DNA of 64,000 bases from Elusimicrobiota bacterium (GCA_016715645.1 JADJZR010000004.1:37269-101268); one strand, 5' to 3'; counted from the first letter of the stretch, positions 1 through 50,889 are shown. Program-made: numbers and translations. The notes: generated by a model from the letters alone, not told the origin.

Positions 1-1101
1 CGGCCGGTTCGTGACCGAGCCGTTCGTTGACCGCTCGGAACCGGTCCAGATCGACATAGATCACGGCCAAAATATAGCCGGGTTGGCGTTTAATCCGGTC
101 GATCACGTTGGTGAGCCGGTCCATAAACAGAGCGCGGTTGGCCAAGCCGGTGACCTTGTCGTGGAACCCTTCGTGGCGAAGGCGCTCTTCGGCTTCTTTG
201 CGGGACGTGATGTCGGTTTGCGATCCGACGACCCGGTACGGCGCGCCGGACGCGTCTCGAACCATCAAGCCCCGGGTGGAGACCCATCGGTACCCGTTGT
301 CACGGTGGCGGATGCGGTATTGAATTTCCAGCGTGTCGTGGCCTTCGCGGCCCAAATGGTCGAACGACTGCAACACCAGCTCCGCGTCGTCCGGATGAAT
401 GCGGTCCCACCAGGCTTTGGGATGGTTTTCAAACTCCGTTTCAGCGAACCCCAGGATGCTTTTCCATCGGGGCGAGAAAAAATACGGTCGCTGGGCAGAT
501 GCCAGTCAAACAATCCGTCGTTGGCGGCTTGCGCGGCGATGGCGTAACGCTCTTCCGAGGATTTCAATGCGTCCAAGGCGTTGCGGCGGGCGGTGATGTC
601 GCGGGCGATCAAAACGGCCTGATCGTCAACGGCCGAACGCAGACGGGCTTCGTAAAACAGCATTCCCCGCGTTCCCAAAAAGCCGAATTCCAACGAGCCC
701 GTTTCGCGCGTGCGACGCGCGTGGGTCAACGCTTCGTGCAAGCGACGACCAATGTCGGAGTTGGGAAACTCGGCGAGGGTTTTTCCGATCCATTCCCACG
801 CGGGCCGGCCCAGTTCGTCCAGGGCCGTCCCGCTGGTTTCCAGAATGAGTCCCTGTTGATCAATGACCAGAAAAATATCGGGAAACGCTTCGAAGACAGC
901 GCGCAGGTGCGAGGCGGTCCGCGCCATTTGAAGCGCGTTAGCGTGAAGGGAGTTCTGGAGGGATCGGCGGACTTCTTCGTCTTTCCACAGCGCGTCGTTG
1001 ACGGCCCGAACCCACCGGCGAAACAAGAGAGTCATCGCGCCGGTGGGGCCTCGGAAAAAGTTTCTGTATTGCGCTTTAAGCCGATCGTGAAGTTTGACCA
1101 C
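1..1101 (-). CDS. PAS-PAS-GGDEF diguanylate cyclase, 3' end outside window; apparent -1 frameshift at the T6/A6 run near 477-482
   Basis: ORF 265..1101 translates to two PAS-like blocks (DGLFDWHLPSDRIF...). After the run at 477-482 an alternative frame continues the PAS consensus (FSPRWKSILGF...IQYRIRHRDNGYRWV) and the start of a GGDEF domain (GLANRALFMDRLTNVIDR...YVDLDRF). Restoring one T would join the two frames. Confidence 0.75.
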
Positions 1102-1265
1102 GGTCCCGTCCTTGGTTGTCTATCCTTACACATATAGCCCCCCAAAGCTTCAAAATCAACCCCCCCCAACGGTTGGGAATGGGGCCGCCGGTGCTGGTTT
1201 TCCGCGGTCGGCGATGGGCGTTCGCTTTTGGTAAAATCGAGGTCACTTTCAGGGGAGGCCGATCC

Positions 1266-2021
1266 ATGACCGTTTCGCCCGCTTTGTTGGAAACGCTGAA
1301 ATCCATCGACGATGTCAAAGTGTTCTTAAAAACTCTTCACGATCATTTCGGCGATCGGATGGCCATCGCCACCAGCGGCCAATTGACGGGAGAAGTCATT
1401 TTGGATCTGTGCGTGAAGGCGGGTTTCAAGCCCCGGGTTTACACGGTGGACACGAAACGTCTTTTTCCGGAAACCCTGGCCCTCTTCGATGCGGTGGAAA
1501 AAAAATACGGGATAAAAATCGAGCGTTATTATCCGGATCCCGCCGAGCTCAAGACCCTGGTCGAAGAGAACGGGGAATACCTGTTCTTTGATTCGAAAGA
1601 GAAACAGGAATTGTGTTGCCGGGTTCGAAAAGTATTGCCCAACGAACGGGTGTTGCGGACCTTGGACGTGTGGGTGACGGGGTTGACGGCGGACCAGTCC
1701 GCCAGCCGCCAGAAAATGCCCCGGGCCGAAATTATTGAGCGCGTGGAAGACGGGAAGAAACGATCTCTTTTGAAAGTGTCGCCGTTGGTCGATTGGCCCG
1801 AATCCAAGGTGAGGGAGTATGCCAACGCCAACGGCGTGCCCGTGAACCCCCTGATGAACCGGGAATTTCCAGGCGGGTGGCGCTACGAATCGTTGGGATG
1901 CGTGATCTGCACGACCCCCATCGGTCCGTTCGAATCCCGTCGAGCGGGTCGCTGGCGGTGGTTGAACCAAGACGCATCGAAAGAATGCGGTCTGCACCTG
2001 CCGCCGCCGACCCATGGTTGA
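1266..2021 (+). CDS. cysH: adenylyl-sulfate / phosphoadenylyl-sulfate reductase (thioredoxin-dependent; CC and CxxC Fe-S type)
   Basis: Translation carries a PAPS_reduct core, an ELCC pair, a GCVIC motif and the C-terminal KECGLH signature. ATG at 1266 is preceded by a GGGGAGG RBS. The upstream part of ORF 1116.. shows no homology-like signal. Confidence 0.85.
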   Translation: MTVSPALLETLKSIDDVKVFLKTLHDHFGDRMAIATSGQLTGEVILDLCVKAGFKPRVYTVDTKRLFPETLALFDAVEKKYGIKIERYYPDPAELKTLVEENGEYLFFDSKEKQELCCRVRKVLPNERVLRTLDVWVTGLTADQSASRQKMPRAEIIERVEDGKKRSLLKVSPLVDWPESKVREYANANGVPVNPLMNREFPGGWRYESLGCVICTTPIGPFESRRAGRWRWLNQDASKECGLHLPPPTHG

Positions 2022-2826
2022 GACCGGCGAATTGTTGGATGTCGCCCGGGAGGCCGCGTTTGCCGCGGGGCGGCGCGTGATGGAGGTTTTGCGTTCAACG
2101 GTTGAAACGGCCCGCAAAGCGGACCATTCGTTGGTCACCAACGCCGACCATGAGGCGAACACGGTGATTTTAACGGCACTGCGCCGGTCTTTTCCGGAAC
2201 ACGGGATATTGAGCGAGGAAACCGGACGGGAAGGTCCGGTCTCGGCCGAGTATGTGTGGGTGGTGGATCCTCTCGACGGAACCCGGGCGTTCGTCCGCGG
2301 TTTGGCGGGGTTCAGCGTTCATGTGGGCCTTCTCAAGGAGGGGCGTCCCCACGCGGGGGTGGTGTTCGACCCTGTGGCGCAAACCTGTTTTGAGGCGCAA
2401 CGGGGTCAGGGAGCTTTTTTAGTGGGGCCGGGCCGGCGGGTTCCACTTCGCGTGTCATCGCGGGCCGATTGGTTGGCCATGCCCGTTATCACCTCCAAGG
2501 GGTTCCCCCCGGACCTTCGCCGAAGCCTGGAACAAAAGTGCGGTTTGTCCTTTTTAGAGCCCATTAACAGCGTGGGCGTGAAGGTGGGGTATATGGTTCG
2601 GCGGTTGGCGGACATTTACTTAAACCATCATCCGGTCCGGTATTGGGACACCTGTGCGCCCCTGGTGATCCTGGAAGAAGCCGGGGGGCGCATGACCCAT
2701 TGGGACGGCACGCCGCTTTCCTTTGCAGCGGCGGAAGGCAACGCTCATCCGCACCCAACAGTCGCCACAAACGGTGTGCGCCACGAGGAATTGGTGTCGT
2801 TGTTGGCGTCTTTTCCGAAACCGTGA
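2014..2826 (+). CDS. cysQ: 3'(2'),5'-bisphosphate nucleotidase / inositol-monophosphatase family
   Basis: Carries the WVVDPLDGT motif and IMPase-family architecture. It lies immediately downstream of cysH and overlaps it by 8 nt, consistent with PAP removal. Confidence 0.8.
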   Translation: MVETGELLDVAREAAFAAGRRVMEVLRSTVETARKADHSLVTNADHEANTVILTALRRSFPEHGILSEETGREGPVSAEYVWVVDPLDGTRAFVRGLAGFSVHVGLLKEGRPHAGVVFDPVAQTCFEAQRGQGAFLVGPGRRVPLRVSSRADWLAMPVITSKGFPPDLRRSLEQKCGLSFLEPINSVGVKVGYMVRRLADIYLNHHPVRYWDTCAPLVILEEAGGRMTHWDGTPLSFAAAEGNAHPHPTVATNGVRHEELVSLLASFPKP

Positions 2827-3416
2827 AAACGAAACCGTTGGATCTGCGGCGGTTGACCGAACGGGACCTGGTGTCGCGGTTGGCCGACGACAACAACGAT
2901 CTTCGATGGGCGTCGTTTCAGGAGTTGTGTTCCCGGGCCGAAAAAAGGGGTTGGGAAGCTTACGGTCTCATGACCCAAGATACGGAACTCGCTCGTTTGT
3001 TCGTGTCGCCCAAAGACCCGTTCGATGCCGTGGGAGCCCTGGTGGGGTTGTCGACCTACGATCGGATTCGAACCGCGTGGCCAGACGCGGTGGAACGAAA
3101 AATTGAAAACGGCGGCCGGGAGTTGACCATCGATTTCCGCCATCGGCGGTTGGACGTGGTGTGTTTGGGCGAAACGCCCTGGCCCGTTCAGGGCGAAACA
3201 CCGGAAGGGCAGGAAGGGTTGGGCGAGGTGGAGTTTTGTGTCACCGACGTGTCCGCGTTTTCGGCCCGTGTGGGCCAGTTAAAAGGAGATTTACGGGGAC
3301 GGTTAATTTTGTTGCCGGGTTCGGAGGGGGCGGCGTTGCACACGAGGTTTCTGTTGGCCCATGTCCCCGGGCCCCGGGGAACCCGGACAGTGCTGGTTCA
3401 GCTAGTCCAAGGATAA
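2823..3416 (+). CDS. hypothetical protein, possible VOC/glyoxalase-like C-terminal half
   Basis: GTG at 2823 overlaps the cysQ stop. GC3-rich coding frame. No confident family assignment from sequence alone. Confidence 0.35.
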   Translation: MKTKPLDLRRLTERDLVSRLADDNNDLRWASFQELCSRAEKRGWEAYGLMTQDTELARLFVSPKDPFDAVGALVGLSTYDRIRTAWPDAVERKIENGGRELTIDFRHRRLDVVCLGETPWPVQGETPEGQEGLGEVEFCVTDVSAFSARVGQLKGDLRGRLILLPGSEGAALHTRFLLAHVPGPRGTRTVLVQLVQG

Positions 3417-3439
3417 ATCCCCCGACTTGGGTGGGGCGG

Positions 3440-5452
3440 CTACGCCATGGTTTCCGGGTCCACGTCGAGGTGAAGGGTTGTTCCTGCGGGCGGGGTGAAA
3501 GAACGGGCCAGACGGATCCAATGATCCATGGCGGAAAGCGGGGCTTTGATCACGGCTTGCCACTGGGCCCATCCCGCCTTCATTCGATGAAACGCCGGCG
3601 CCGGGCCCAACACGTCTCCTTCCACGGCGGGAACGTGCGATTGCATCCAACGAACAAATTGTTCCGCCGCGGATTCCGCGCCGCTCTCGGCGCGGGCGCG
3701 CACCACGGCATGGACCACCCGAGTGAACGGGGGATAGGCGGCTTCCCGTCGATAACTCAATTCGTGCTGGGCAAAAGATTCGTAGTTGCGTTCCAGAACG
3801 GCTTGAAGCGCGTAATGGTCCGGACTGGATGTTTGGATGATGACTTCCCCGGGCCGGTCGGACCGGCCCGCGCGGCCGGCCACTTGCATCAGCAACTGAA
3901 AGGTCCGTTCGGCCGCGCGAAAGTCCGGAAACGACAGGGACCGATCCGCGTCTAAAACACCCACCAAAGTTAAATTGGGAAAATCGTGGCCCTGGGCGAT
4001 CATTTGGGTCCCCACGATGATGTCGATTTTTCCGCTGAGAGCGTCGCGGTAAGCCTGTTCGTGGCCCTGACGGCCGCGGACCGCGTCGCGGTCCCACCGA
4101 AACAGGCGCGCGGATGGAAACAGAGCGGTCAGGTCGGCCGCTACCCGCTGGGTGCCCCGGCCCGACATTTTCAAAACTTCGCCACGGCATTTGGGGCATT
4201 TTTCCGACAGCGGTTCCCGGTGGTCGCAGGTGTGACAATGAAGAAACGGGCCCGCCTTCTCCCGATGGAGAACCAGGCTCACGTGGCACGCGGGGCATCT
4301 CGCCACCCATCCGCAGGCGCGGCATTCCACGTGGGTGCTGTAGCCGCGACGGTTTAAAAATAGCATGGATTGTTCTCCCCGAACCAACCGTTCCCTCACG
4401 GCGTTCACCAACACATCGGAAAAATACCAGCCCTCTTTTCGCCGGTCGACCAGCCGAACGGAAGGAAACGGTCGGTTTTCCACCCGTTGGGTAAGAACCA
4501 AACGGTCGATTTCCCCCGCCTGGGCCCGGGCGTGGGTTTCCAAAGACGGGGTGGCGCTTCCCAACAACAAAACGGCGCCGTGCAGCCGGGCTTTTTCTTC
4601 GGCGGTGTCGCGGGCGTGATAGTGGGGTGTGTTGTCTTGTTTGTAAGAGGGATCGTGTTCTTCGTCGATCACGATCAGGCCCAGGGGTGTCACGGGCAAA
4701 AACAGAGCTGAGCGGGGGCCCACCACCACCCGGGCCTCGCCCGACCGCACCCGTTGCCACACGCGCCACCGGTCGCCGAGGGCCATTTCGCTGTGCCACA
4801 CTTCCAGAGAGTCACCAAACCATCCACGCAGGCGGTCTTCCATTTGGGGGGTTAACCCAATTTCGGGCACCAACAACAGGGCGCCTTTCCCGGCGTCGAG
4901 GGCGGCGGTGATGGCTCGACGGTAAATTTCTGTTTTTCCCGACGCGGCCACGCCCTGTACCAACACGCGGCGGTGGACGTTTGCGGCCAGGGCGGGAAGA
5001 ATGAGATCCAGCGCCGCTGTTTGGCCCGCGGTGGGCTCAAACGGCGTGGGTGTTTCCCGGGTGCGGACGGGTTCTTTGGCCGGTCGTTGGGGCGGTTTGC
5101 GTTGGCCCAGGGGGAAAACCGTGAACAGCGCTTCGCCGGGCGAACAGGAGTAACGTCGACTCATCCAATGGGCCAAGGCCATGTCCCGGGGCTCCAAAAC
5201 CGGGTCGGGTTCCACGCAAGCGGCGATGTCTTTCAGTTTCGTCGTCGGCAACCCGCCGGCTTCGGGTTCGTGCAAACGGGCCACGACGCCCATTCGACGG
5301 GTTCCCTTGCCAAAAGGCGCCCAGACGCGATGACCCACTCGCACGAAGCCTTGCAAGTCGAGGGGAATGCGGTAATCGAAAAAACGGTCCAGGGGAACCG
5401 CAAACGCCACTTCGGCCAGCCGCGTGTCCAAATTATTTGTCGAGTTCGGCAC
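3440..5452 (-). CDS. priA: primosomal protein N' (replication restart helicase PriA)
   Basis: 670 aa with a Walker A GKT, a DEEH box, Cys-rich zinc-binding CxxC motifs and PriA-type 3' DNA-binding N-terminus. Confidence 0.9.
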   Translation of the reverse strand: MPNSTNNLDTRLAEVAFAVPLDRFFDYRIPLDLQGFVRVGHRVWAPFGKGTRRMGVVARLHEPEAGGLPTTKLKDIAACVEPDPVLEPRDMALAHWMSRRYSCSPGEALFTVFPLGQRKPPQRPAKEPVRTRETPTPFEPTAGQTAALDLILPALAANVHRRVLVQGVAASGKTEIYRRAITAALDAGKGALLLVPEIGLTPQMEDRLRGWFGDSLEVWHSEMALGDRWRVWQRVRSGEARVVVGPRSALFLPVTPLGLIVIDEEHDPSYKQDNTPHYHARDTAEEKARLHGAVLLLGSATPSLETHARAQAGEIDRLVLTQRVENRPFPSVRLVDRRKEGWYFSDVLVNAVRERLVRGEQSMLFLNRRGYSTHVECRACGWVARCPACHVSLVLHREKAGPFLHCHTCDHREPLSEKCPKCRGEVLKMSGRGTQRVAADLTALFPSARLFRWDRDAVRGRQGHEQAYRDALSGKIDIIVGTQMIAQGHDFPNLTLVGVLDADRSLSFPDFRAAERTFQLLMQVAGRAGRSDRPGEVIIQTSSPDHYALQAVLERNYESFAQHELSYRREAAYPPFTRVVHAVVRARAESGAESAAEQFVRWMQSHVPAVEGDVLGPAPAFHRMKAGWAQWQAVIKAPLSAMDHWIRLARSFTPPAGTTLHLDVDPETMA

Positions 5453-6245
5453 GAAGACTTTTCATGTCTTCCCAGACATCCTTTTTTAAGGACGGGTTGC
5501 GCAAAAGGGCCGCCGGATGATACGTGGGCAATAGTCGTGCGGTCAAACCGTCGATGCGGAAATCCACCCAACGGCCCCGAAATTTTGAAATGCCTTCCTC
5601 GGTTTTTAACAGGGCGCGGCCCGCCGTGTTGCCCAGTGTCACCAAAAACAACGGTTGAATGATGCGCAACTGGGCGAAAAGGAAGGGGGAACACACGTCC
5701 ATTTCCTCGGGCGTTGGCGGACGGTCGTTGCTCCGTTTGGTGTTGTCGGACGGATCGATCATGGGATGGCATTTGACCATGTTGGCGATGAAAACCCAGT
5801 TGACCGGTGGGTTCACGGGACCGCGCGATAAACCGGTGGCCGTCAGAATTTTGTCCAGCAGTTGGCCGGCGGGGCCCACGAAGGGTTCCCCTTGGCGATC
5901 TTCGGCATAGCCTGGTCCTTCCCCGATGAACACCACTTTGGCGTCGGGGTTGCCCACGCCAAACGCCAGGCGAATTCGCGACGCCCCCAACGGACATCGT
6001 TGACAATCGCCGATGTGATTTTGTAACCGGACCAACCGATCCGATTTCGAAAGGGATGGGTCGTCCACAAAAGCGTCGAGAACATTCGTCGGCGCCGCCG
6101 CGGCGGGGGGGAGAGAAGTGAGCCGCTCCGGCGGCTTATTCGAGGTGGGGGAGGTCCCCTTCCCGGACAGATACCGGGAACGTTTTTCAGCGACGGTTCG
6201 ACGGACAGCGGAGGTGAGCGCGGCCAACTCTTCTCTATTCGTCAT
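5433..6245 (-). CDS. uracil-DNA glycosylase, family 4 (4Fe-4S type)
   Basis: Contains the GEGPGxxEDxxGxPFVGxAGQLL motif and a CxxC...C signature typical of family 4 UDG, with a ~70 aa N-terminal extension. Confidence 0.85.
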   Translation of the reverse strand: MTNREELAALTSAVRRTVAEKRSRYLSGKGTSPTSNKPPERLTSLPPAAAAPTNVLDAFVDDPSLSKSDRLVRLQNHIGDCQRCPLGASRIRLAFGVGNPDAKVVFIGEGPGYAEDRQGEPFVGPAGQLLDKILTATGLSRGPVNPPVNWVFIANMVKCHPMIDPSDNTKRSNDRPPTPEEMDVCSPFLFAQLRIIQPLFLVTLGNTAGRALLKTEEGISKFRGRWVDFRIDGLTARLLPTYHPAALLRNPSLKKDVWEDMKSLRAELDK

Positions 6246-6888
6246 GGGATCGGATCATCTCCAGAAGGTTCGTTAAAACAAGGTCTGCCAAATTTTTTTT
6301 GTCTCCGGAAAACCGGTGGGGGGGTCGGCCTGCCTGAATTAAAATCGCCCGTGACCGAACCGCTCCCAGCGCGCGGGGGGAATTGGCCACAACCAGGTCC
6401 AAATTTTTTCCGCGCATTTTTTTCCGGGCGTTGGCCAAAAGATTATCGGATTCCAGGGCAAACCCCGCCAGTCGGGGAAACGCGCCCCGCCGTTCTTTTG
6501 ATAACGTGGCCAAAATATCGGGATTCGCCACCAACCGGATAACCGGTGCGCCGGGCCTCTTTTTCAATTTTGACCGAGAAACCGTTTGCGGACGCCAGTC
6601 GGCGACGGCCGCCGAACCAATGACGGCGTGGGCGCGACGGGCCGCTTTGCGCGTGGCGGCCAACATGTCCCGGGCGCTGACGACCCGAACCACCTGGACC
6701 CCTTTGGGATCCGGTAAATTCGTGGGACCCGCCACCAGGGTCACCCGTGCGCCTCGTTGGTGTGCGGCGGTGGCCAGAGCCCAGCCCATTCGCCCCGACG
6801 ACTCGTTGGAGAGATATCGCACAGGGTCCAATTTTTCCCGCGTGGGCCCCGCGGTGATGACCAGACGTCGGAAACTCCAGTCCTTCAC
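6235..6888 (-). CDS. coaB: phosphopantothenate-cysteine ligase domain (CoaB part of CoaBC)
   Basis: Motif LVITAGPTREKLDPVRYLSNESSGRMG. GTG start at 6888 lies three codons after the in-frame TAA that ends the CoaC domain. Confidence 0.8.
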   Translation of the reverse strand: MKDWSFRRLVITAGPTREKLDPVRYLSNESSGRMGWALATAAHQRGARVTLVAGPTNLPDPKGVQVVRVVSARDMLAATRKAARRAHAVIGSAAVADWRPQTVSRSKLKKRPGAPVIRLVANPDILATLSKERRGAFPRLAGFALESDNLLANARKKMRGKNLDLVVANSPRALGAVRSRAILIQAGRPPHRFSGDKKNLADLVLTNLLEMIRSHDE

Positions 6889-6897
6889 GATGGAGTG

Positions 6898-7440
6898 TTA
6901 CAGCGATCGGCTTAACGCGTCGACAATCGATTCCGGGTCCGCCATTCGGCCAAGACCTTGATCGCCGCTGGCCAGGGGACCCCGTTCAGGGCCCACCAAT
7001 CGGTATCCAAACCCACGAACCGTTTCGACGTTGCGTTGGGTGGCTGGGTGGGTCCACATGGGTTCGTGCATGGCGGGAGCCAAAATCACCGGCGCCCGGC
7101 TGGCCAAAATCAGGGAGGTCAGGAGGTCGTCGGCCGACCCGGCCGCGAGCCGGGCCAAGAGGTTGGCCGACGCCGGGGCGACCAAGATTGCCGCCGCGTT
7201 TTTGGCCAAGTCCAGATGGGGCATGGACCCCGATGGGAGGTCGAAAGGATCTGTGAGAGCCGGTCGGCCCGTGAGGGCCGTCAGGGTCAGCGGGGTGATA
7301 AACCGTTGCGCACCCGCTGTTAAAACAGCGGTAACCTGGGCGCCGGCCGCGGTTAACCGACGGGCCACGTCGGCCGCTTTGTAAGCGGCGACGCTTCCGG
7401 CCACGCCCAACACAATGTGCCGACCGCGCAACGGGTCCAT
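6898..7440 (-). CDS. coaC: phosphopantothenoylcysteine decarboxylase flavoprotein domain (CoaC part of CoaBC), terminated by an in-frame TAA
   Basis: Translation matches the CoaC domain. The TAA at 6898-6900 is in the same frame as the CoaB ORF and sits 9 nt upstream of it. Confidence 0.8.
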   Translation of the reverse strand: MDPLRGRHIVLGVAGSVAAYKAADVARRLTAAGAQVTAVLTAGAQRFITPLTLTALTGRPALTDPFDLPSGSMPHLDLAKNAAAILVAPASANLLARLAAGSADDLLTSLILASRAPVILAPAMHEPMWTHPATQRNVETVRGFGYRLVGPERGPLASGDQGLGRMADPESIVDALSRSL

Positions 7441-7449
7441 GGGGTCGGT

Positions 7450-7803
7450 TTACTTTTCGGGGGCGGGTTCTTCCGCCGCGGTGTCTTTGTCGTCCGCGGG
7501 AAGATCTTTCAAGCTAATGGTGGGAAAGGTGAACTCCAAATCTTTTTTCTCCACTTTGGGCGGCGGGGGTAGCTTTTCAATTTCGTCCAAAGTGACTTTC
7601 TTCCCCAGAATTTCCCGCAAGGATTGGGCCAAAATCTCTTGTGGGGGCAGGTTGGATTGATCGCGGATTTTGATTTCTTTCGCCCATCGGGTCACGAGCG
7701 AAATCATGCGGTACTTATCGTGAGTCACGGTGAGCAGTAATTGGCTGAGCGGAGCGTCGATGTTCACGGGCGCTTCAACGGCGGCTTCTGTTTTTTTAGT
7801 CAC
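7450..7803 (-). CDS. rpoZ: DNA-directed RNA polymerase subunit omega
   Basis: Motif LLLTVTHDKYRMISLVTRWAKEIK matches the RpoZ consensus. GTG start overlaps the gmk stop (GTGACTAA), giving the classical gmk-rpoZ order. Confidence 0.7.
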   Translation of the reverse strand: MTKKTEAAVEAPVNIDAPLSQLLLTVTHDKYRMISLVTRWAKEIKIRDQSNLPPQEILAQSLREILGKKVTLDEIEKLPPPPKVEKKDLEFTFPTISLKDLPADDKDTAAEEPAPEK

Positions 7804-8431: not shown

Positions 8432-8463
8432 GGGGATAAGGTCGTTTGAGCAGGGTGATTGTA

Positions 8464-11787: not shown

Positions 11788-12834
11788 ATGCCATTTATTT
11801 CAACGTCTCGAAAACAGGCTTTTCGCCACCGTCTTGCCCGGTGGTACAAACGACAAGGCCGACACGACCTTCCGTGGCGGGGGGCGTTTGCCCCTTATCA
11901 AGTCCTGGTGTCGGAATTCATGCTTCAACAAACAACTGTGGCCACGGTGATTCCCTATTTCCATCGGTTCCTCAGGTCGTTTCCAACGGTGGAAAAGTTG
12001 GCCCGGTCACCGTTGGAGAAAGTGCTTGAGCGATGGGCGGGGTTGGGCTATTACGCCCGGGCAAGGAACCTGCACCGAACCGCTAAAATCCTTGTTCGCG
12101 ACTACGGTTCCCGCTTGCCCCTGACACGAGATCAAGCCGAATCGTTGCCCGGGGTCGGGCCCTACACGGCGGGAGCGCTGTTGTCTTTTGCCCATAATTT
12201 ACCGGAAGCTTTGGTGGACGGTAACGTGATCCGGGTTTTGGCCCGTGTGTTTGGCGTGAAAGAAGACCCGCGTCAGCCCGCCGTCCGTCGCCATCTGTGG
12301 GCCTTGGCGCAATCATTGGTTCCTCCCAACGGGGGACGCTATTACAATTCCGCTCTCATGGATTTTGGCGCGACGGCGTGCACGACGGGACTGCCGGATT
12401 GTCCGGCCTGTCCTCTTTCTTCTCTATGTTGGGCCCGCCGAAACGACTGGGTGCAACGGTTGCCTGTCCCGAAACCCGATTCCCCCAAAACAGTTGTTCG
12501 GTTAAGCGCTCTGGTGGTGACTCAAGACGGCCGGATTCTATTGCGTCGTCGTCCCCTGGGCGGTTTGTGGGGGGGATTGTGGGAATTGCCCACCCTGGAA
12601 GGACCCGTCGTTCGAGGTCAACCCGTTGTTGTGGCGGGGGGAGAAATTGTTCCTGTCGGCCAAAGGGGGGCGGCGCGCCACGTTTTGTCTCATCGGGATT
12701 TGCGCGTGGACCTGTGGGAGGGGCGTCTTGTTCGACCCATCCATAAGTCAAAATGGGTTCGCCTCTCCGCCGTCCGATCGAAAGCTGTTTCAGCCTTGAC
12801 AGCGAAATTGATCGATCAATCTACCGCTCTTTGA
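11788..12834 (+). CDS. mutY: A/G-specific adenine DNA glycosylase
   Basis: HhH-GPD domain, a 4Fe-4S Cys cluster (C..C..C..C) and a C-terminal NUDIX-like domain. Confidence 0.85.
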   Translation: MPFISTSRKQAFRHRLARWYKRQGRHDLPWRGAFAPYQVLVSEFMLQQTTVATVIPYFHRFLRSFPTVEKLARSPLEKVLERWAGLGYYARARNLHRTAKILVRDYGSRLPLTRDQAESLPGVGPYTAGALLSFAHNLPEALVDGNVIRVLARVFGVKEDPRQPAVRRHLWALAQSLVPPNGGRYYNSALMDFGATACTTGLPDCPACPLSSLCWARRNDWVQRLPVPKPDSPKTVVRLSALVVTQDGRILLRRRPLGGLWGGLWELPTLEGPVVRGQPVVVAGGEIVPVGQRGAARHVLSHRDLRVDLWEGRLVRPIHKSKWVRLSAVRSKAVSALTAKLIDQSTAL

Positions 12835-13498
12835 TGAAGTCGCCCCCGTGGTGGCGGATGTCTTTGCCTTGAACCATGAAGATGACGTCTTCGGCAATAT
12901 TGGTGGCGTGGTCGCCGATTCGTTCCATGTTGCGCGAGAGCAAAATCAAGTCCACGTATTGGGAAGAGCGTTCGGGGTCTTTTTTGAGCCGCTCAATCAA
13001 CTGGGTCAAGGCCCGGGCTTTGAGTTGATCTTCTTCTTCGTCCTGGGCCAGAACGCCTTTGGCCAATTCCACATCTTGGCGGGCAAACGCGTCCAAACTG
13101 TCCCGAAGCATTTTTTGGCTGATTTCAGACATGCGCGTCAGCAGGACCACTTCGGGGACAGGGGTTTCTTTTAAAAGGTGATAGTGGCAGGTTTGGCTCA
13201 CGTTGACGGCCTGGTCGGCAACGCGTTCCAAGTCGGTGTTAATTTTCATGGCCGCGGCGATCAAACGCAAGTCCACGGCCATGGGCTGATGGAGCGCGAT
13301 CAGTTTCAGGCATCGGTCGTCGATTTCCACGTGCATTTGGTTGACCTGGTTTTCCAGATCGAAAACATCGGACGTCAGCTCGTCCCGCCGTTCGTACAGG
13401 GCCTTGACGGCCTTTTGAATCATTTCTTCCGCAATAGATCCCATGCGAAGCAAGCGTTCTTTGAGTAGGCGTAAATCCTCATCGAAGTGGCGTTCCAT
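12821..13498 (-). CDS. phoU: phosphate signalling complex protein PhoU (copy 1)
   Basis: Two PhoU repeats (..RIGDHATNIAEDV.. and ..DLERVADQAVN..). Start taken at MERHFDEDL. Confidence 0.85.
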   Translation of the reverse strand: MERHFDEDLRLLKERLLRMGSIAEEMIQKAVKALYERRDELTSDVFDLENQVNQMHVEIDDRCLKLIALHQPMAVDLRLIAAAMKINTDLERVADQAVNVSQTCHYHLLKETPVPEVVLLTRMSEISQKMLRDSLDAFARQDVELAKGVLAQDEEEDQLKARALTQLIERLKKDPERSSQYVDLILLSRNMERIGDHATNIAEDVIFMVQGKDIRHHGGDFIKER

Positions 13499-13511
13499 GT
13501 GTTCCTCCCGG

Positions 13512-14315
13512 TTAACCGAATCGGCCTGTGATGTATTGTTCGGTGCGTGTGTCTTGGGGACTGGTAAAAACCCGGCCGGTGGGGCCGAATTCCACACGTT
13601 CTCCCAACAAAAAGTAGGCGGTCATTTCCGAAACCCGTGCGGCCTGTTGCATGTTGTGGGTGACAATGACGATGGTGTAGCGTTCTTGTAAACCCAAAAT
13701 CATTTCCTCAATCCGTTGGGTGGCGATGGGGTCGAGGGCGGAACAGGGTTCGTCCATCAGCAAGACGTCGGGTTCCACCGCCAACAACCGGGAGATGCAC
13801 AGCCGTTGGTGTTGTTCGGGAGGGAGCGCGAGGGCCGGTTCGTTCAGTTTGTCTTTCACTTCTTTCCAAAGGCCGGTGGACCGGAGGGACTGTTCCACCA
13901 CCTCAGGCAAACGCCCCGTCAAAGTGGTGAACCCGTGGGCCGTACGCCACGTTTTCAAATACGGAGATGGGAAACGGGTTGGGCCGTTGGAACACCATCC
14001 CCACCCGTTTGCGGAGTTTGATCAAATCGATCCGGGGAGCCAAAGAATCGTGATGCCGTCCAACCAGGGCTTCCCCTTTGACCCGAACCCCCCGGATGAG
14101 ATCGTTCATTCGGTTGAACGTTCGCAACAGCGTGGACTTGCCGCACCCGGATGGTCCGATGAACGCGGTGATGGTTTGGGCGGAATCGGAAGGGCGATGT
14201 TTTTGAGCGCTTGGAATTCCCCATAAAAAGGTTGAGCCCCGGGTTTCAATAACGGGGGCGGGGACGTTGGACGGTGGGGCGTAAAGGTCGGTTTAGCCAA
14301 ACCGGCCGGACACAT
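13512..14315 (-). CDS. pstB: phosphate ABC transporter ATPase PstB (copy 1), interrupted by two single-base frameshifts in homopolymers
   Basis: Three ORF fragments 14106..14315 ([18 protein letters not shown]), 13903..14127 ([25 protein letters not shown]) and 13512..13958 (LSGGQQQRL...[12 protein letters not shown]...YITGRFG) together make a full PstB. The shifts lie at the TTT run 14175-14177 and the GGG run 13937-13939. Confidence 0.75.
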
Positions 14316-14966
14316 AGTCGGCGGTTTTTTGTTCGCGGGGGCTGGTGAACAGTTGGCCCGTTTCGGCCAGTTCCACCAGGCGCCCCATCAACAGAAACGC
14401 GGTCCGGTCCGACGTGCGGGAGGCCTGTTTCACGTTGTTGGTGACCAAAACGATGGACATGCTCTTTTTGAGGCCCTGCAGGGCTTCTTCAATTTTGGCT
14501 GTGGAAATGGGATCCAAGCCGGAGCAGGGTTCATCGAGCAAAAGCACTTCGGGACGAAGCATCAAGCTTCGCGCCAGGCAAAGCCGTTGCTGTTGGCCCC
14601 CCGATAACGCCAGGGCGGACAGGCCCAATCGGTCTTTCACTTCGTCCCACAAAAACGCGGCCCGCAGGCTTTCTTCGACCCGTTGGCCCGCATCGGCGTG
14701 GCGGCTTTGAAACCGCAGGCCCAGGATGAGGTTGTCGGCAATGGACATGGGAAGCGGTGTGGGCGTGGCGAACACCATGCTGACTCGCCGTCGAAGGGCG
14801 GCCACGTCGGTTTCGCGCTTAAGATATCGTCGTTATCCAACAACAGTTCGCCTGTTACCGACAAGCCATCTTCCAAATCCGTCAGGCGATTCAGGCACCG
14901 CAAAAAAGTGGTTTTCCGCTTCCCGCCGGTCCAATGATGGCCTAAGGCGGGTGTGCTGAGACTCAT
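14293..14966 (-). CDS. pstB: phosphate ABC transporter ATPase PstB (copy 2, tandem), with an apparent frameshift and an aberrant Walker A region
   Basis: Fragments 14637..14966 (..TTFLRCLNRLTDL..) and 14293..14805 (LRRRVSMVF...LSGGQQQRL...LLLDEPCSGLDP...YVSGRFG). Frame switch at the TTT run 14811-14813. The P-loop reads GHHWTGGKRKTT in frame but AIIGPAGSGK in the adjacent frame. Confidence 0.7.
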
Positions 14967-23445: not shown

Positions 23446-24474
23446 GTGATCTCGATCTCTTTGCCGATGGCGACGGGCCTGTTTTTTGTCTCCGGCATGG
23501 CCGGGCTGATGTATGAGGTGGTTTGGATCCGAATGATGGCCAGCGCGTTCGGGGCCACGGACACGCCATGGCCGTCGTGGTATCGGCGTTCATGGCGGGA
23601 TTGGCTTTGGGCGGGTGGGCGTTCGGCCGATGGATGGATCGGGTTCGTCATCCGTTGCGGGCTTACGCCTGGCTGGAAGCCGGGATCGCCCTGTCGGCCC
23701 TCCTGGTGCCGTTGGTTCTCCGGGCCTCGGAATGGATCTACGTCGCCGTGTATGCCCAATTTCCGAACAGCCCTCTTGTGGGCGTGTTGAGCTGGTTTTT
23801 CTTGTCGTTTGTTCCTCTTCTTGTTCCTCCCACGCTGATGGGCGCGACTCTTCCGGCCATCAGCAAACACATGGCGCGCCGAGCCGATCGGATCGGGACC
23901 GACGTGGGATCGTTGTACAGCGTCAACATCGTCGGTGCCGTGGGGGGGGGCTTATCTGGCGGGATTTATCCTGGTCGGCCGCTATGGCCTTGATCGGACC
24001 GTTTTTTTGGCGGGGGGCCTAAACATTCTGGCCGACCTCTTGGCGTTGGGTATCGATCGATATACGCAAGCGCCCACACCAGCGTTGAATCTATCGGCGG
24101 GACAGGCCCAAGGGGAGCCCTCTCGACCGGTTTGGATGGTCGTCTTTTTTCTCACGGGCTTCGCCTCTTTGGCGTTTCAAATTTTGTGGACCAAGGGCTT
24201 GGCCCTTTTCGTGGACAACACGGTTTATTCCTCTTCGGCCAAATCCCACAACAACATAGCGACCCTTTACCTGGCGGTCGGGCAGGGAGACACGGCCGCG
24301 AGGCATTTTCTTCGGGCCATTGAATTGGATCCGGCGTATGTGACCCCGCGTTTGAATCTGGGATTTTACTACCGCGATGCCGGGAAGAGCGATCAAGTGG
24401 AGGAACAGTTTCAGAGAGCCCGCGAGATCGATCCCACCCACCCCGCTTTGCGGGAGATCCACGCTTTGCCGTGA
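23446..24474 (+). CDS. polytopic membrane protein (MFS-like N-terminal module of fused spermidine-synthase-type proteins) with a C-terminal TPR; two apparent frameshifts
   Basis: Fragments 23446.. (GLMYEVVWIRMMASAFGAT), 23523..23993 and 23935..24474 (TPR: AIELDPAYVTPRLNLGFYY). Frame switches at GG 23559-23560 and at a G9 tract 23944-23952. Confidence 0.6.
23944..23952. repeat. G9 homopolymer tract inside a coding sequence
   Basis: Nine consecutive G (cgtGGGGGGGGGcttatc) coincide with the frame change in the membrane/TPR gene. Confidence 0.9.
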
Positions 24475-46604: not shown

Positions 46605-46624
46605 TTGGAGTTGTCCAATGTCAA

Positions 46625-47422
46625 TCAGCTGACGGACTCGGAACTGTAGCGGGCGATAAGCCCTGTGCGGACCGCGCGGCGAAAAACCGCTCGAAAAACC
46701 CAACACGCCGCGAAAAGGTGAAGACCCGCTAAACCCATTCCCCACAGAACTGGGGCGAAGGAGACGGCGTGCCCCAACACCAGCGAGCGCAAACTCTCAA
46801 ACACATAGGACGCAGGCAAGACCCGGGCCACTTCTCTCATCCATGCGGGGAGTATGTCCAAGGGGTACAACACGCCGACGAAGGGTGAAAGGAGGGCTGG
46901 AATGGGCCAGATGAACCATTCGGCGGCGGGGCCTAACCTCAAAACCAGAGCGCACCCCAATATCCCCATGGAAATGCCATAAACGAATAAGACGAGGAGA
47001 AAAGGTATCGCCATCGCCCCATACGCCATGCCGGAGAACCCAAATACGGCCGTCGCCAAAGCCAGCATAACGCCCAGCCCAATCAGGCTGGTGGTTACAC
47101 TCGAGAGCACGAGACCAAGCAGATACTCCCCTACGGAGATCGGGGTGGAAAAAACATTGAGGAAGTTCCTCGACCACACGTCCTCAAAAAAGATCATCGT
47201 AACCCCTTGCATCACCCGGATGAAGAAATTCCATAACAGCACCGCGCCCAACAGGGTGGGAACAAAATTGGAGGTGGTGATCGTGTTCAAATAGCGGGTG
47301 AGGTATCCCCACAAGACCATGTCGATGGCCACCCACGTGAACAGCGGAAAGACCCGGGAAAGACTTCCCCGGATCAAATAGGCGTAACGCAACAACACGG
47401 CCGCGACGCGATGAAAATTCAT
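46625..47422 (-). CDS. ABC-2 family permease
   Basis: 265 aa, six TM segments. Overlaps the ATPase gene by 4 nt. Confidence 0.7.
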   Translation of the reverse strand: MNFHRVAAVLLRYAYLIRGSLSRVFPLFTWVAIDMVLWGYLTRYLNTITTSNFVPTLLGAVLLWNFFIRVMQGVTMIFFEDVWSRNFLNVFSTPISVGEYLLGLVLSSVTTSLIGLGVMLALATAVFGFSGMAYGAMAIPFLLVLFVYGISMGILGCALVLRLGPAAEWFIWPIPALLSPFVGVLYPLDILPAWMREVARVLPASYVFESLRSLVLGHAVSFAPVLWGMGLAGLHLFAACWVFRAVFRRAVRTGLIARYSSESVS

Positions 47423-48156
47423 TGAGACACCTGTTCGATCGAAAGTGGTTCAAGGGCCACCGCAACGAAAAGGTCTTCTAGATTCTTTTTTCCGTGCAAA
47501 GCGGGCAAGGTTTTGGGATCTCCTTCCAACAAAATTCGACCCCGTGAGAGAAAGAGAACCCGGTTGCAGACCTCGGCCACTTCGTGCATGTTGTGGGAGG
47601 TCCACAACACGCCGGCCCGGCTCTCGTCAACGTAAGACCGGATCTCCAACCGGATCCGGCGCGCCGTGGCGGGGTCCAAGGAGGCCGTGGGCTCGTCCAG
47701 AAGAAGAAGAGGAGGGTGGTTTAAGAGGGCCTTGGCCAGGGACACCCGGGTTTGTTCGCCGGACGACAGGGTGCCGCATTTGACGTGGCGAAATTTCCGA
47801 AGGTCGAATTGTTCCAGGAGTGCGTCGATCCGATTCCGCGGGTGAGCCACGCTGTAGAGCAGTGAGAAAACCCGCAGGTTTTGATAAACGGTCAGGTTTC
47901 CGGGAAGCGGCGCATAGCCCGCCGCAAAGTTCATGCGGGAGAGAGCATTGCTTCGTTGGGTCGAAAGAAAAGACCCTTCGACCGCGATAAACCCTGAATC
48001 GGGTTCCAAGACGCCCATCACCATATTAATGGTGGTGGTTTTGCCCGCTCCGTTAGGTCCCAAAAGACCAACGATCTCGCCCGGCCGAACGCAGAAGGAC
48101 ACCCCGTCCACGGCGGCCACCGTTGCAAACCTTTTGCGAAGCGAATCAATCGTCAA
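47419..48156 (-). CDS. ABC transporter ATP-binding protein
   Basis: Walker A GPNGAGKTT, the LSSGEQTRVSLA signature and Walker B LLLDEPT. Confidence 0.85.
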   Translation of the reverse strand: MTIDSLRKRFATVAAVDGVSFCVRPGEIVGLLGPNGAGKTTTINMVMGVLEPDSGFIAVEGSFLSTQRSNALSRMNFAAGYAPLPGNLTVYQNLRVFSLLYSVAHPRNRIDALLEQFDLRKFRHVKCGTLSSGEQTRVSLAKALLNHPPLLLLDEPTASLDPATARRIRLEIRSYVDESRAGVLWTSHNMHEVAEVCNRVLFLSRGRILLEGDPKTLPALHGKKNLEDLFVAVALEPLSIEQVSQ

Positions 48157-48236
48157 AACGTCGATAAAAAATCCCCCTGAATCGAACGCGCTTTCTGCTA
48201 TCTTACTTAATCTAAAGCTTTCAAACGTCGAATCTC

Positions 48237-48260
48237 GGGGGACGTATTTAGGTAATTAGG
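48237..48260. repeat. left terminal inverted repeat of the IS-like element
   Basis: GGGGGACGTATTTAGGTAATTAGG. Confidence 0.7.
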
Positions 48261-48298
48261 TTATTGACTTTCCAAGAATAGCTTGATATTAATTGACC

Positions 48299-49312
48299 AT
48301 GCCCCGTCAGGCGCGCCTTGATTTTCCTGGTCTTCTCCACCATGTAATCGCTCGCGGTATTGAGCGACGGCCGATCTTTAACTCTCCAACGGATTACGCC
48401 GATTTCTTGTCCCGTATCGAAATCAACTATTCTCGATATCCATGTCAAATATACGCCTGGGCCCTTATGCCAAACCACTTTCATCTCCTGGTTCGGTCAG
48501 GGGAGAATGGGATTTTCCCGTTCATGAAGAGGCTCATGACAGGTTATGCCGTCGGGTTTAATCATCGGCACAAACGCGCAGGGCATCTTTTTCAAAACCG
48601 GTACAAGTCTATTGTTTGCGAGGAAGGTCCCTATTTTCTTGAACTTATTCGGTACATTCATTTAAACCCCTATCGGGCCAAAATGGTCAACAATTTAGAG
48701 GAACTTTCGACATTTCCTTATACGGGGCACCCTGTTCTATTGGGCAAAAAGTCGTGCTCCTGGCAAAATCAAGATGGTGTTTTGTCCTTGTTCTCCCGAA
48801 TTTCATCGGAGGCAATCAGAGGCTATTTCCAATTCATGAAGGATGGGGAAAACCAGGGGTCCCGACCCGATTTGATGGGAGGAGGCCTGATCCGGAGCCA
48901 AGGGGGAGTTCGGGCGGTTCTTTCAAATAATCAGCCTGGGAACCGTGAAGCCTATGATTCCCGTATTCTAGGGTCGGGAGAATTTGTGGAGGGGGTTTTA
49001 AGACGGGCGGAAAAGGAAATGGAGTTGGAATACGAACTGAAAAGGAAAGGCGTGGGGATTCAGGATATTGCGAAGAAAATCGCTAAAGAGGAAGGGGTGG
49101 ATGAAGCCGACCTCTACCGTCGTGTAAGGACAGAGGCGGTATCCCGGGCGAAGGCGAGGCTGATTCATGTGGGTGTGGAATATTTGGGTCGGACGAACCG
49201 GGAAATGGCACTACTAACGAGGATGTCGGATCCCTCTGCCAGCGAAGCTCGGAGAAAAGGAGCAGGTTATTTTAGGGAAAACGAAGTCGCGGGATGGCTA
49301 TTACCTAATTAA
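48299..49312 (+). CDS. IS200/RAYT-like HuH tyrosine (Y1) transposase with a C-terminal HTH-like extension
   Basis: HuH motif PNHFHLLV and a RAYT-like LFQNRY...YIHLNP block. The ~150-aa C-terminal tail (..REMALLTRMSDPSASEARRKG) looks HTH-like. The candidate ATG follows TTGACT-17-TATTAAT. Confidence 0.7.
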   Translation: MPRQARLDFPGLLHHVIARGIERRPIFNSPTDYADFLSRIEINYSRYPCQIYAWALMPNHFHLLVRSGENGIFPFMKRLMTGYAVGFNHRHKRAGHLFQNRYKSIVCEEGPYFLELIRYIHLNPYRAKMVNNLEELSTFPYTGHPVLLGKKSCSWQNQDGVLSLFSRISSEAIRGYFQFMKDGENQGSRPDLMGGGLIRSQGGVRAVLSNNQPGNREAYDSRILGSGEFVEGVLRRAEKEMELEYELKRKGVGIQDIAKKIAKEEGVDEADLYRRVRTEAVSRAKARLIHVGVEYLGRTNREMALLTRMSDPSASEARRKGAGYFRENEVAGWLLPN

Positions 49313-49327
49313 CTAAATGCGTCCCCC
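49304..49327. repeat. right terminal inverted repeat of the IS-like element
   Basis: CCTAATTAACTAAATGCGTCCCCC, reverse complement 22/24 identical to the left end. Confidence 0.7.
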
Positions 49328-49353
49328 ACTGCGGGGACCGAAATGGAGGGGGC

Positions 49354-50889
49354 TTGCGTATTGCTTTGATTGATTTGGGTACTAACGCGGTGAGGTTTGA
49401 TGTTTATGAACTGTCGGGGCGGGGCGAACCGTGTCGGCTTCACCGGGAACGGCTGGCCGTGCGGTTGGGGGAGGGCGTTTTTGTTCGGGGCCGGTTGGCC
49501 CCGGCGGCCATCCGTCGGACCTTGGCGGCGTTTGTCAGTTTCAAAAAAACCTGTCATCGGTTGGGTGTCGATCGAATGACAGCGTTCGGTACCAGCGCCC
49601 TGCGCGATTCGGCCAACAGCGAACTGTTGTTAGGCCTGATCAAACGCCGCACCGGTATTGAGGTCCGTGTGATTTCCGGACAGGAAGAGGTTTGGTTGAT
49701 CGTTTAAGGCATTTTGGTCCATGAGAATCGTTTGGCCAAGGGGCTGGCGGCCTTGGTGGATATCGGCGGGGGAAGCGTGGAGATCACGCTGTGTCGGGGC
49801 CGTCGGTTGTTGAGGTCCACCAGTTTTAAGTTGGGCGTCGCCCGCCTGCAACAGGTCTTTTTAAAAACGATCCCTCCGCGCGCGGGGCCAGGGGAAAAGT
49901 CGCCCCTCGCCAAACTCCGTCGGCACGTTCGTGCCCTGTTGGCGGAGGGCGCTCCGCGAGGCGGGTGGCCAAACGTGTCTCGAATCGTGGGGTCGGCGGG
50001 CACCATTCGGGCCCTGGACCGGATTCATCGCGCCGCCGGCGGTGACTTTTTGACCCCCAAACACTTGAACCGATGGGCCGAGCATTTTTCAACCTTGTCC
50101 CGGACGGGGTTGGCCCGGGTTCCCGGCATGGATCCGAAACGGCCCGACACCATTCTGGCGGGGGTGGTTGTGTTGGAAGAAATAGCTCGGGCTTTAGGAT
50201 CTCCCCGGGTGGATCCGACGGATTATTCTCTCCGTGACGGCATGCTCGAAGAAGAAATCGAAACCGCCCGCCGGGGCGCGGGAACGGCGTTGGACTTCCA
50301 TTTAAAAGACGTTTTTGAGAAGGCCCGCGGGTGGGGGGTGCCGGTCCGTCATTTGCGACATGTGCAAGGGTTTGCCGAACGGTTGTTCGACCGCCTCGCG
50401 CCCCTTCACCGACTCGGCCGCGCCCATCGGGATTATTTAGTGGCCGCCGCGTGGCTTCAAGACGTGGGCGAGTTGATGAGCCCTGTCCATCACGAGCGCC
50501 ACTCGTATTACATGGTGAAAAACGGGGATTTTCCCGGAGTTGACGCGCGGGAATTGGAATGGATCGGGCAGTTGGTGCTGTGGCACAAAGGGGGCAAAAT
50601 TGATCGAACCGACGTTCCGTTCAAAGAAACCGCTCGCTGGAAAATATTTTGCCGGCTTCTTTCCCTGCTTCGAATCGTTGATGCTTTGGAAAAACCCCAA
50701 GCCCACCTTGTGACGCTCCGGGGGGTGCACCGGCAACGGGGTCGGGTGCGTTTGCGGCTGAAGGGCAATCGGTCGGCCGTGGATCTGGCCATTTTGAGGG
50801 TCGAACAAAAAAAAGAACTTTTCGAGAAAACTTTCCGTCGCACCCTCACCGCGGTGATTGATTCGTCTGCGAAAAAGTCTGTTCGTTGA
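49354..50889 (+). CDS. ppx: Ppx/GppA family exopolyphosphatase, interrupted by an in-frame TAA at 49705-49707
   Basis: ORFs 49354..49707 and 49714..50889 are in the same frame. Across the stop the sequence reads EVWLIV*GILVHENRLAKGLAALVDIGGGS, colinear with the Ppx/GppA motif. A C-terminal HD-like region is present. Confidence 0.75.

Follow-up and report, generated by a model that had tools for sequence, protein, structure and literature searches.

The closest described systems to the interrupted genes of this contig are split coaB/coaC genes, ordinary pseudogene decay, phase-variable contingency loci and the strain-collapsed consensus sequences of Nanopore R9.4.1 assemblies. The split of the bifunctional Dfp/CoaBC into monofunctional coaB and coaC is also found in streptococci and enterococci. 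Homopolymer indels are the known residual error of Nanopore R9.4.1 data (PMC9262707).

We examined a window of 64,000 nucleotides (the whole stretch of DNA analysed) from a wastewater Elusimicrobiota contig, in which a sequence-only reading had listed at least five broken genes and called the pattern of their frameshifts typical of consensus errors in homopolymers. All five are interrupted in the window, with several of the coordinates and descriptions in need of correction. It is most probable (about 0.6) that they have three distinct causes, namely a conserved gene split, a true pseudogene, and assembly or polishing artefacts. Most of the lesions look like consensus errors from a metagenome assembly that merged different strains, and biologically there is nothing unusual in this contig.

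Comparison with orthologous loci separated the lesions, as those of the PAS-GGDEF gene, the pstB genes and ppx were absent there, whereas the coaBC TAA and a frameshift at 23560 were present. At the pstB, ppx and PAS sites the comparison is with relatives, since the independent contigs that cover them are not from the exact strain of the window, and the G9 run is covered by no independent contig at all. A scan of genome contigs for relatives found a single related species; the relatives found in a scan of metagenome contigs all had amino-acid identities of at most 76%, useless for allele checks, and look-ups of the exact PPK and PhoU products returned no match.

The coaC|coaB locus and in-frame TAA codons

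The coaC and coaB locus (6235..7440, minus strand) consists of coaC (6898-7440), with a Flavoprotein domain, and coaB (6235-6888), with a DFP domain, as identified by Pfam and from the sequence. The in-frame TAA reported for coaBC is indeed present, at 6898-6900, and together with 9 nt it parts coaC from coaB, which has a GTG restart codon at 6886-6888. This TAA and its surrounding sequence were identical in GCA_018057525.1, GCA_018060765.1 and a Logan assembly, and a TAA occupies the same codon in L011, an EBPR Elusimicrobiota MAG with ~83% nucleotide identity. The stop falls within the linker between two complete domains, and a GTG 6-9 nt past the coaC TAA is kept in both species. Judged on these comparisons, the TAA is a natural and conserved coaC|coaB split and not an artefact. 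It would terminate CoaC within the interdomain linker, and CoaB would most likely be restarted at the conserved GTG by translational coupling.

As in the known split systems, the cistrons are adjacent and carry one complete domain each, the boundary falls in the interdomain linker, and the arrangement is conserved across species. Unlike in those systems, the two cistrons of the window share a frame and are only the TAA and 2-3 codons apart. No obvious Shine-Dalgarno sequence was found at the coaB start, which suggests a fairly recent fission with termination-reinitiation.

The shared frame, which the coaBC halves keep across the TAA in two species, could also be expected if in-frame TAAs were translated, through reassignment of the stop codon or programmed readthrough. 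We consider this extremely improbable and rejected reassignment, since TAA is a normal terminator in the window (14 of the 46 intact ORFs end in it), only two in-frame TAAs occur within 64 kb, and there are no tRNA genes within the window. Furthermore, the coaC|coaB linker differs by one codon between the species, which is compatible with two cistrons, and the second TAA, in ppx, which stands in place of His, Arg or Gln within a cluster of damaging changes, is not found in sister assemblies.

The MFS/spermidine-synthase–TPR remnant and the homopolymer runs

The gene at 23467..24474 (plus strand) was recognised from alignments and homologues as a fused MFS/spermidine-synthase–TPR remnant. Its first break, placed earlier at 23559-23560 and attributed to a homopolymer, is a -1 frameshift at 23560/61 (GGTTCAC to GGA-CAC) with no homopolymer involved. 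The same ACGGACAC frameshift recurs, with 0 gaps against the window, in an assembly from a different project, and contig L007 has the intact allele ACGGTTCAC at this site; the frameshift segregates in natural populations. Homologues are at least 430-580 aa long, and the copy in the window, which lacks the C-terminal MFS half and the synthase domain, can be aligned only with residues 12-293 of 505. An internal deletion appears to have its junction at 24233|24234, and two short-read contigs both begin at 24234. L016, a related species, has no copy of the gene between metH and the hemerythrin gene.

Since the frameshift is found in an independent assembly, an intact allele exists elsewhere and domains have been lost, the remnant is a real pseudogene. 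It resembles ordinary pseudogene decay in its frameshift, which is polymorphic in the population, in its missing domains, and in the absence of the gene from a related species. In contrast, the signs of decay to be expected are missing from the other disrupted genes, whose lesions are not reproduced elsewhere, so that pseudogenisation, which had been offered as the alternative for all of them, holds for this remnant only.

The remnant also contains a G9 run, located at 23942-23950 rather than at 23944-23952, where the in-frame length would be G8. The second run that had been pointed out, in the PAS-GGDEF(-EAL) gene (1..1101, minus strand, cut by the window start), was correctly placed: three-frame translation confirmed a frameshift at a T6 run (A6 on the plus strand, 477-482). 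The ~83% identical species L011 has an intact T7 there (ATT TTT TTC), and two short-read assemblies have an intact ATC TTT TTC, so the T6 lesion is absent from them.

With its G9 run, the membrane-protein gene recalls a phase-variable contingency locus, and so does the signalling gene with its T run. It is nevertheless very unlikely that the T6/T7 and G8/G9 runs serve phase-variable regulation by slipped-strand mispairing or are rescued by slippage during transcription. G9 is long enough to slip and T7 is present in the related species; T6, on the other hand, is too short, and no length polymorphism was seen in either run, the two short-read assemblies having ATCTTTTTC and not a variable run. 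The gene with G9 is already dead, with an independent real frameshift and no catalytic domain, leaving nothing to switch. Phase variation would also leave pstB, ppx and coaBC unexplained.

The first pst operon and ppx

The first pst operon lies on the minus strand and contains an intact phoU (12821..13498), the downstream ATPase gene pstB1 (13512..14297) and the upstream ATPase gene pstB2 (14293..14966). They were compared with L001 and L011, which represent the window's species and a close relative, and with the ~76% identical L016. Intact pstB2 (256 aa) is present in all three, and pstB1, likewise intact, is 270 aa long in L016 and 255 aa in the other two.

In pstB2 there are 1-bp deletions at ~14916 (A5 to A4) and ~14814 (A4 to A3), and the sequence-only reading missed a deletion of 95 bp with its junction at 14943|14942, where 32 codons before Walker A are gone. 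Positions 14800-14295 are 100% L001-type, and the 109-aa junction ORF was encoded on no other contig by exact look-up. In pstB1, two breaks had been proposed, at 13937-13939 and 14175-14177. The gene is disrupted, these positions being approximate, by six indel events and not two, most of them outside homopolymers (+2 at ~14258, -2 at ~14226, -1 at ~14182, +1 at ~14066, +2 at ~14041 and +1 at ~13911), and its start codon has changed from ATG to ACG. Besides the 95-bp deletion, the two pstB genes thus carry eight small indels in total. Conserved motifs such as LDGITIL persist out of frame.

In addition to its indels, pstB1 is a fine mosaic of L001-type and L016-type sequence, which extends into the 5′ 170 bp of phoU (L016-type, the remainder being L001-type). 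Among 229 informative sites at 13330-14297, 113 are L001-type and 116 are L016-type, with ~68 parental switches in 968 bp, 10 sites of neither parent's type and only 9 private changes, that is, two sources, many switches and few private changes as in a two-parent mosaic. Of the six indels, five fall in the stretch of finest mixing (14297-14040) and one at a place where the parental sequences differ in length by 5+1 nt, and blocks with 100% parental identity have no indels. Gene conversion from the second pst operon was rejected as the source of the mosaic, the operon being only ~68% identical, and so was a single third lineage as donor, for which there are too few private changes for so much mixing.

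Bacterial pseudogene decay is far less indel-rich than six indels per 9-19 private substitutions, the ratio in pstB1. This very high ratio and the interleaving of two parents argue that pstB1 is a blended consensus of two parental sequences.

The second in-frame stop lies in ppx (Ppx/GppA, 49354..50889, plus strand; Pfam and homologue alignment). The TAA noted there is found at 49705-49707; it is not isolated and lies among 8 substitutions clustered within 28 bp (49691-49718), which comprise CCC>TTT twice and two more changes. By homologue alignment, the cluster strikes the conserved EEARLIAxGIL motif. In the short-read MAGs L097 and L098, ppx is intact with 0 gaps, and the site reads GCCCGGTTGATCGCCCATGGCATTTTGGCC there vs GTTTGGTTGATCGTTTAAGGCATTTTGGTC in the window. 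Outside the cluster, the differences from these two MAGs are mainly at third codon positions, again with 0 gaps, and there is no decay 3′ of the stop. We looked within the window for an ectopic template for the cluster and found none. A methylation motif behind CCC>TTT was not supported either, as unaltered copies persist in the window (34 GCCCAT, 8 GCCCATG and 21 GGCCCGG).

A second phosphate-uptake cluster (porin, pstS, pstC, pstA, pstB and phoU; 53056..58693, minus strand) is intact by Pfam, adjoins ppk (50846-53005), and agrees in its gene lengths with L097 and L098. This redundancy fits a strain in which both ATPase genes of the first pst operon have really been lost, along with ppx and the PAS-GGDEF gene, and which relies on the second cluster; the pstB1 mosaic would then stem from real recombination that brought in sequence of an L016-like species and was followed by decay. 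We regard such a strain-specific inactivation as unlikely. It can draw on the frameshift at 23560, which is proven real, on a consensus quality that is high overall, on strain-level mosaicism, which is common in this population, and on the 95-bp and 1-bp (14916) deletions of pstB2, which add up to 96 bp, restore the frame and could reflect real history. Against it, neither homologous recombination nor a third lineage would give 68 switches within 968 bp alongside only 9 private substitutions, six indels of pstB1 stand against 9-19 private substitutions, its motifs survive out of frame, and ppx shows no decay beyond its stop. Moreover, the truncated products checked and the pstB2 junction ORF are on no other contig, and the genes are intact in relatives at ~99%, 83% and 76% identity.

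Somewhat more doubtful still is the specific reading in which the pstB pair and ppx are inactivated, the ppx cluster results from strand-coordinated CCC>TTT hypermutation and pstB1 from an interspecies recombination import; the agent of hypermutation would be, for example, a cytosine deaminase. If true, the phosphate and polyphosphate metabolism of an activated-sludge Elusimicrobiota strain would have been remodelled by the loss of pstB and ppx. Instead, it is most likely, on the basis of sequence comparison, that the lesions of pstB2 and pstB1, the TAA cluster of ppx and the T6 of the PAS-GGDEF gene are artefacts of the source contig.

The source contig and its consensus

The truncated ppx and PAS products and the TPR fragments that depend on G9 were found in public data only on one 296,530-bp NCBI MAG contig. 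Assemblies from short reads do not exceed ~16 kb for this population, which fits a long-read origin of the source contig. This contig (locus tag IPN19_, MBK88701xx) presumably belongs to a Nanopore study, PRJNA629478. The likely source pipeline was CANU on R9.4.1 reads, followed by Racon, two rounds of medaka and one Illumina Racon round (PMC8012365). Which sequencing platform was used, and at exactly which polishing step the blend arose, are both inferred.

A uniformly error-prone assembly was rejected, as alignments of 8.2, 9.4 and 10.2 kb with short-read contigs were free of gaps. Over ~38 kb, only 2 indel differences from such contigs occurred outside the flagged genes, both intergenic. 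The consensus quality is high, with 146 of the 174 homopolymers of at least 6 nt located within intact ORFs, and therefore residual errors must be strongly localised. When divergence from the nearest short-read contig was scored per 200-bp window, all three unreproduced lesion loci fell in the 13.5% of such windows that are at least 3% divergent.

The source contig thus appears to be a long-read metagenome assembly in which co-existing strains were collapsed before short reads were used for polishing. Where its allele diverges from the short-read-assembled strains, reads of two templates would compete, and the consensus would be mixed site by site and acquire indels wherever the templates align ambiguously or are of unequal length. 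The real pstB1, pstB2, ppx and PAS-GGDEF alleles would then be intact.

The lesions resemble those of a strain-collapsed Nanopore R9.4.1 consensus in being on one long contig, absent from short-read assemblies of the same population, and gathered where the contig diverges from the dominant strains. They are also indel-rich, with several changes in A, T or G runs, as residual errors of this platform are. They differ from such errors in the pstB1 indels, most of which lie outside homopolymers, the 95-bp deletion and the C>T cluster of ppx. In all, the indels at T6 (477-482), at G9 (23942-23950) and at ~14916 and ~14814 in pstB2 are in homopolymers, whereas 23560/61, most pstB1 indels, the 95-bp deletion and both TAAs are outside them.

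Consequently, the earlier attribution to consensus errors can be kept for the PAS T6, the pstB indels and the ppx cluster, all unreproduced elsewhere, with a mechanism that is mostly not simple homopolymer miscalling, and it fails for the coaBC TAA and the 23560 frameshift, which independent assemblies demonstrate to be real. Similarly, the proposal that one homopolymer base restores a full-length protein applies to the PAS-GGDEF gene and, locally, to G9, and does not apply to pstB1, pstB2 or the 23560 site.

Inference of gene content or metabolism from this MAG at face value would be wrong: the first operon would seem to lack a functional PstB, Ppx would seem to be missing, and the PAS-GGDEF gene would seem truncated. 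What is real here, namely the conserved fission of coaC|coaB and the decay of one gene, belongs to ordinary biology. As pstB1 illustrates, strain-collapsed and polished long-read contigs can hold blended sequences that resemble pseudogenes.

Three further observations speak against an artefact. The 95-bp deletion and the CCC>TTT cluster are not classic Nanopore/Racon error types, and one frameshift proven real means that real decay does occur in this genome. Reads of a ~76% identical species would be hard to recruit unless a strain of the window's species carries an L016-like allele.

Origin and background accuracy of the contig

We placed about 58 ORFs greedily and then checked the gene map with Pfam. 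The map comprised priA, UDG, coaC/coaB, an ABC-2 system and mutY, the first pst operon on the minus strand (17681–12821, in the order pstS-C-A-B2-B1-phoU), and beyond it glycogen phosphorylase, metH and iscS, followed by an IS200-like transposase, ppx, ppk and a second cluster with a porin and pstSCAB-phoU. A compact phosphate/polyphosphate island (50846–58693) holds ppk, ppx and this second, complete pst cluster with its Porin_5-family porin, all adjacent. The GC content was roughly 57%, and the only low-GC stretch (0.49 vs about 0.57) contains a 509-aa ORF without Pfam match (41989–43518). Relatives assign the window to Elusimicrobiota of wastewater/EBPR systems.

Exact-product look-up found both halves of ppx, two fragments of the membrane/TPR gene and the PAS fragment (MBK8870193.1, MBK8870194.1, MBK8870170.1, MBK8870171.1 and MBK8870147.1; locus tag IPN19_) on one 296,530-bp "MAG: Elusimicrobia bacterium" contig and on no other. 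The IPN/MBK88 series presumably stems from the Danish activated-sludge Nanopore MAG project. The pipeline of that project ran from CANU on R9.4.1 reads through Racon, two rounds of medaka and a final Racon round that used Illumina reads (PMC8012365); a second report names homopolymer indels as the errors known to persist in data of this kind (PMC9262707). For comparison we used short-read assemblies made independently from the same population (GCA_018057525.1, GCA_018060765.1, GCA_020054605.1, GCA_020049755.1 and Logan SRR11088465/68), whose fragments do not exceed about 16 kb.

About 38 kb of the window was compared with short-read contigs, and gap-free alignments were obtained at 4310–12555 (L003), 4653–8451 (L004, 100% identical), 14944–17831 (L001), 24234–34474 (L099) and 45998–56629 (L097 and L098). 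Only two indel differences were found outside the flagged genes, both intergenic, at 1160 and 1178. One of them is a poly-C tract, C8 in the window and shorter in the independent assembly L012, and the other is a 1-nt difference nearby. As background indels were so few, and as most homopolymers of at least 6 nt (146 of 174) lay within intact long ORFs, the contig is not error-ridden in general. TAA is an ordinary terminator here, given its 14 uses beside 24 of TGA and 8 of TAG. Identity to the short-read strains was strongly mosaic at 297–4337 and 45998–56629, where kilobase blocks of 100% identity alternate with 5–7% divergent patches (e.g. 340–1215, 49458–49932 and 54517–55442) whose differences are mostly synonymous. 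This pattern indicates either that strains living side by side recombine often or that the assembly has collapsed several of them into one sequence.

Breaks reproduced in independent assemblies

The sequence-only reading had judged recurrent homopolymer frameshifts and in-frame TAA codons in PAS-GGDEF, both pstB genes, the membrane/TPR gene, coaBC and ppx to be typical of consensus errors. The recurrence was borne out in part, with evidence differing from gene to gene; the explanation by error is supported for a part of the lesions only, the coaBC TAA and the frameshift at 23560 being real on present evidence. None of the lesions needs a new mechanism, and their practical value is as a warning on metabolic inference from this MAG.

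The CoaC ORF (Flavoprotein, 6898–7440) ends in TAA, and the CoaB ORF (DFP, 6235–6888) opens in the same frame at a GTG nine bases after it. The boundary, ATCGCTGTAACACTCCATC-GTG, was identical in three independent assemblies. In L011, an EBPR Elusimicrobiota MAG of a different species (about 83% nucleotide identity), TAA occupies the same codon and is followed by TTG ATT GTG AAG GAC TGG. The stop is present as claimed, but it is neither error nor pseudogene: almost certainly the bifunctional gene has been split within its linker, an arrangement that is conserved, and CoaB would be reinitiated at the GTG.

Conceptual repair of the membrane/TPR gene gave a product that begins as a "fused MFS/spermidine synthase", of which it has the N-terminal half (MFS), and then passes straight into a short TPR tail. 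The product aligned with its closest homologue (505 aa) over residues 12–293 at 56% identity, other members of the family having 430–580 aa or more. The first break, at 23560/61, lies outside any homopolymer. The window and L008, aligned without gaps over 1,060 bp, share ACGGACAC at this site; L007 has the intact ACGGTTCAC. Since the frameshift recurs in L008, from another project, while L007 is intact, we are confident that it is real and polymorphic in nature; the claimed break thus stands, but not as a homopolymer consensus error. The G9 run at 23942–23950, where G8 would be in frame, may be either real or an error, and the gene is already dead whichever way it falls. L016, a syntenic contig from another species, has no copy of it between metH and the hemerythrin gene. 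L099 and L100, short-read contigs of separate assemblies, both begin exactly at 24234, inside the TPR remnant, of which 24233/24234 is an apparent internal deletion junction. Their shared start suggests a structural polymorphism or a repeat boundary in the population.

Lesions of PAS-GGDEF and ppx

The PAS-GGDEF site reads CGT ATT TTT TCT (T6) in the window, ATT TTT TTC (T7) in L011 and ATC TTT TTC in L012 and L013, the last three being intact. A single base lost from a T7 run breaks the frame, as had been proposed, and by exact-product look-up the lesion occurs in the source contig only, where the surrounding patch differs from the short-read strains by about 5.5%. The T6 run is probably an artefact, a view we hold with modest confidence.

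Over 9.4 kb around ppx, two short-read MAGs were 98.8% identical to the window with no gaps, and both are intact at the lesion, reading GCCCGGTTGATCGCCCATGGCATTTTGGCC where the window has GTTTGGTTGATCGTTTAAGGCATTTTGGTC. The changes (CCC>TTT twice, T>A and C>T) fall within 28 bp, so that the reported TAA is present but is no isolated stop. In the homologue alignment they turn the near-invariant EEARLIA(H/R/Q)GILA into EEVWLIV*GILV; elsewhere in ppx most differences affect third codon positions. The cluster is confined to the source contig and falls in one of the patches where strains diverge; it is somewhat likely to be an artefact, but the C>T changes may instead have arisen recently by strand-coordinated mutation. 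No ectopic template for it was found within the window, and a methylation-motif explanation of CCC>TTT was without support. Directly upstream of ppx is the IS200-like Y1 transposase ORF (PF01797, 48293–49312), which the short-read MAGs also have.

PAS, pstB1 and ppx are the three unreproduced lesion loci, and all three fall in 200-bp windows that differ from the nearest short-read contig by 3% or more, a class of 19 among the 141 compared (13.5%). Mixed-strain pile-ups that defeat consensus calling and polishing would give such placement, which is unexpected for independent real mutations.

The tandem pstB genes

L001, a short-read contig of the window's species, encodes an identical PstA and is 99.6% identical over pstSCA. 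Intact PstB2 (upstream) and PstB1 (downstream) have 256 and 255 aa in L001 and L011, and 256 and 270 aa in L016. Compared with L001, the window changes character downstream of 14944. In pstB2, a 95-bp deletion removes 32 codons before Walker A, and 1-bp deletions shorten A5 to A4 (~14916) and A4 to A3 (~14814), after which comes a 505-bp block with 100% identity to L001. The 95-bp and ~14916 deletions together remove 96 bp and restore the frame, which is broken again at ~14814; the deleted segment is flanked by TTGG microhomology, with an extra A at the junction.

Across 14297–13330, we found six indel events inside pstB1 (+2, −2, −1, +1, +2, +1) and a further one in the pstB2-pstB1 spacer, and the pstB1 start codon is lost. 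Where this stretch is unlike L001, it matches L016 block by block at 90–100% identity, although L016 is only about 76% identical genome-wide. At 239 sites that differ between these two parents, the window agrees with L001 at 113, with L016 at 116 and with neither at 10. Many private changes would be expected of a third lineage that stood between the two, but only 9 were found at 720 parent-agreeing sites. Real recombination would give long tracts; instead, the parental type switches 68 times over 968 bp.

The stretch points to a consensus of two competing templates, because the parents are interleaved every few bases (ATTCTTT+GG+CTCCCCGG combines ATTCTTT-CTCCC of L001 with TTTTGGGTCCCCGC of L016), an L016-like flank adjoins an L001-like 5-nt gap at 13911, conserved motifs such as LDGITIL are stranded out of frame, phoU, whose blended 5′ part is a region of equal parental length, stays in frame, and pstB1 has six indel events against 9–19 non-parental substitutions. 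Decaying bacterial pseudogenes have far fewer indels per substitution. We put the probability that the pstB lesions are artefacts at about 75%. The L016-like template would come from a co-occurring species, or from a strain with a real import. The 95-bp deletion may be a real variant. Both genes are disrupted in the deposited sequence, as had been reported, but this deletion and the two-parent mosaic go beyond small homopolymer slips.

The tandem arrangement (window 13512–14966, L001 2866–4411, L011 4925–6471 and L016 9253–10813) has been kept in three species. In PstB2 the signature is the canonical LSGGQ and the H-loop carries Asn (VTNN), while PstB1 combines the canonical His of the H-loop with a degenerate signature, either LSPEQ or LPPEQ. 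Judged from these motifs, the two ATPases resemble an asymmetric ABC heterodimer, which, if true, would make a Pst importer with one consensus and one degenerate ATP site.
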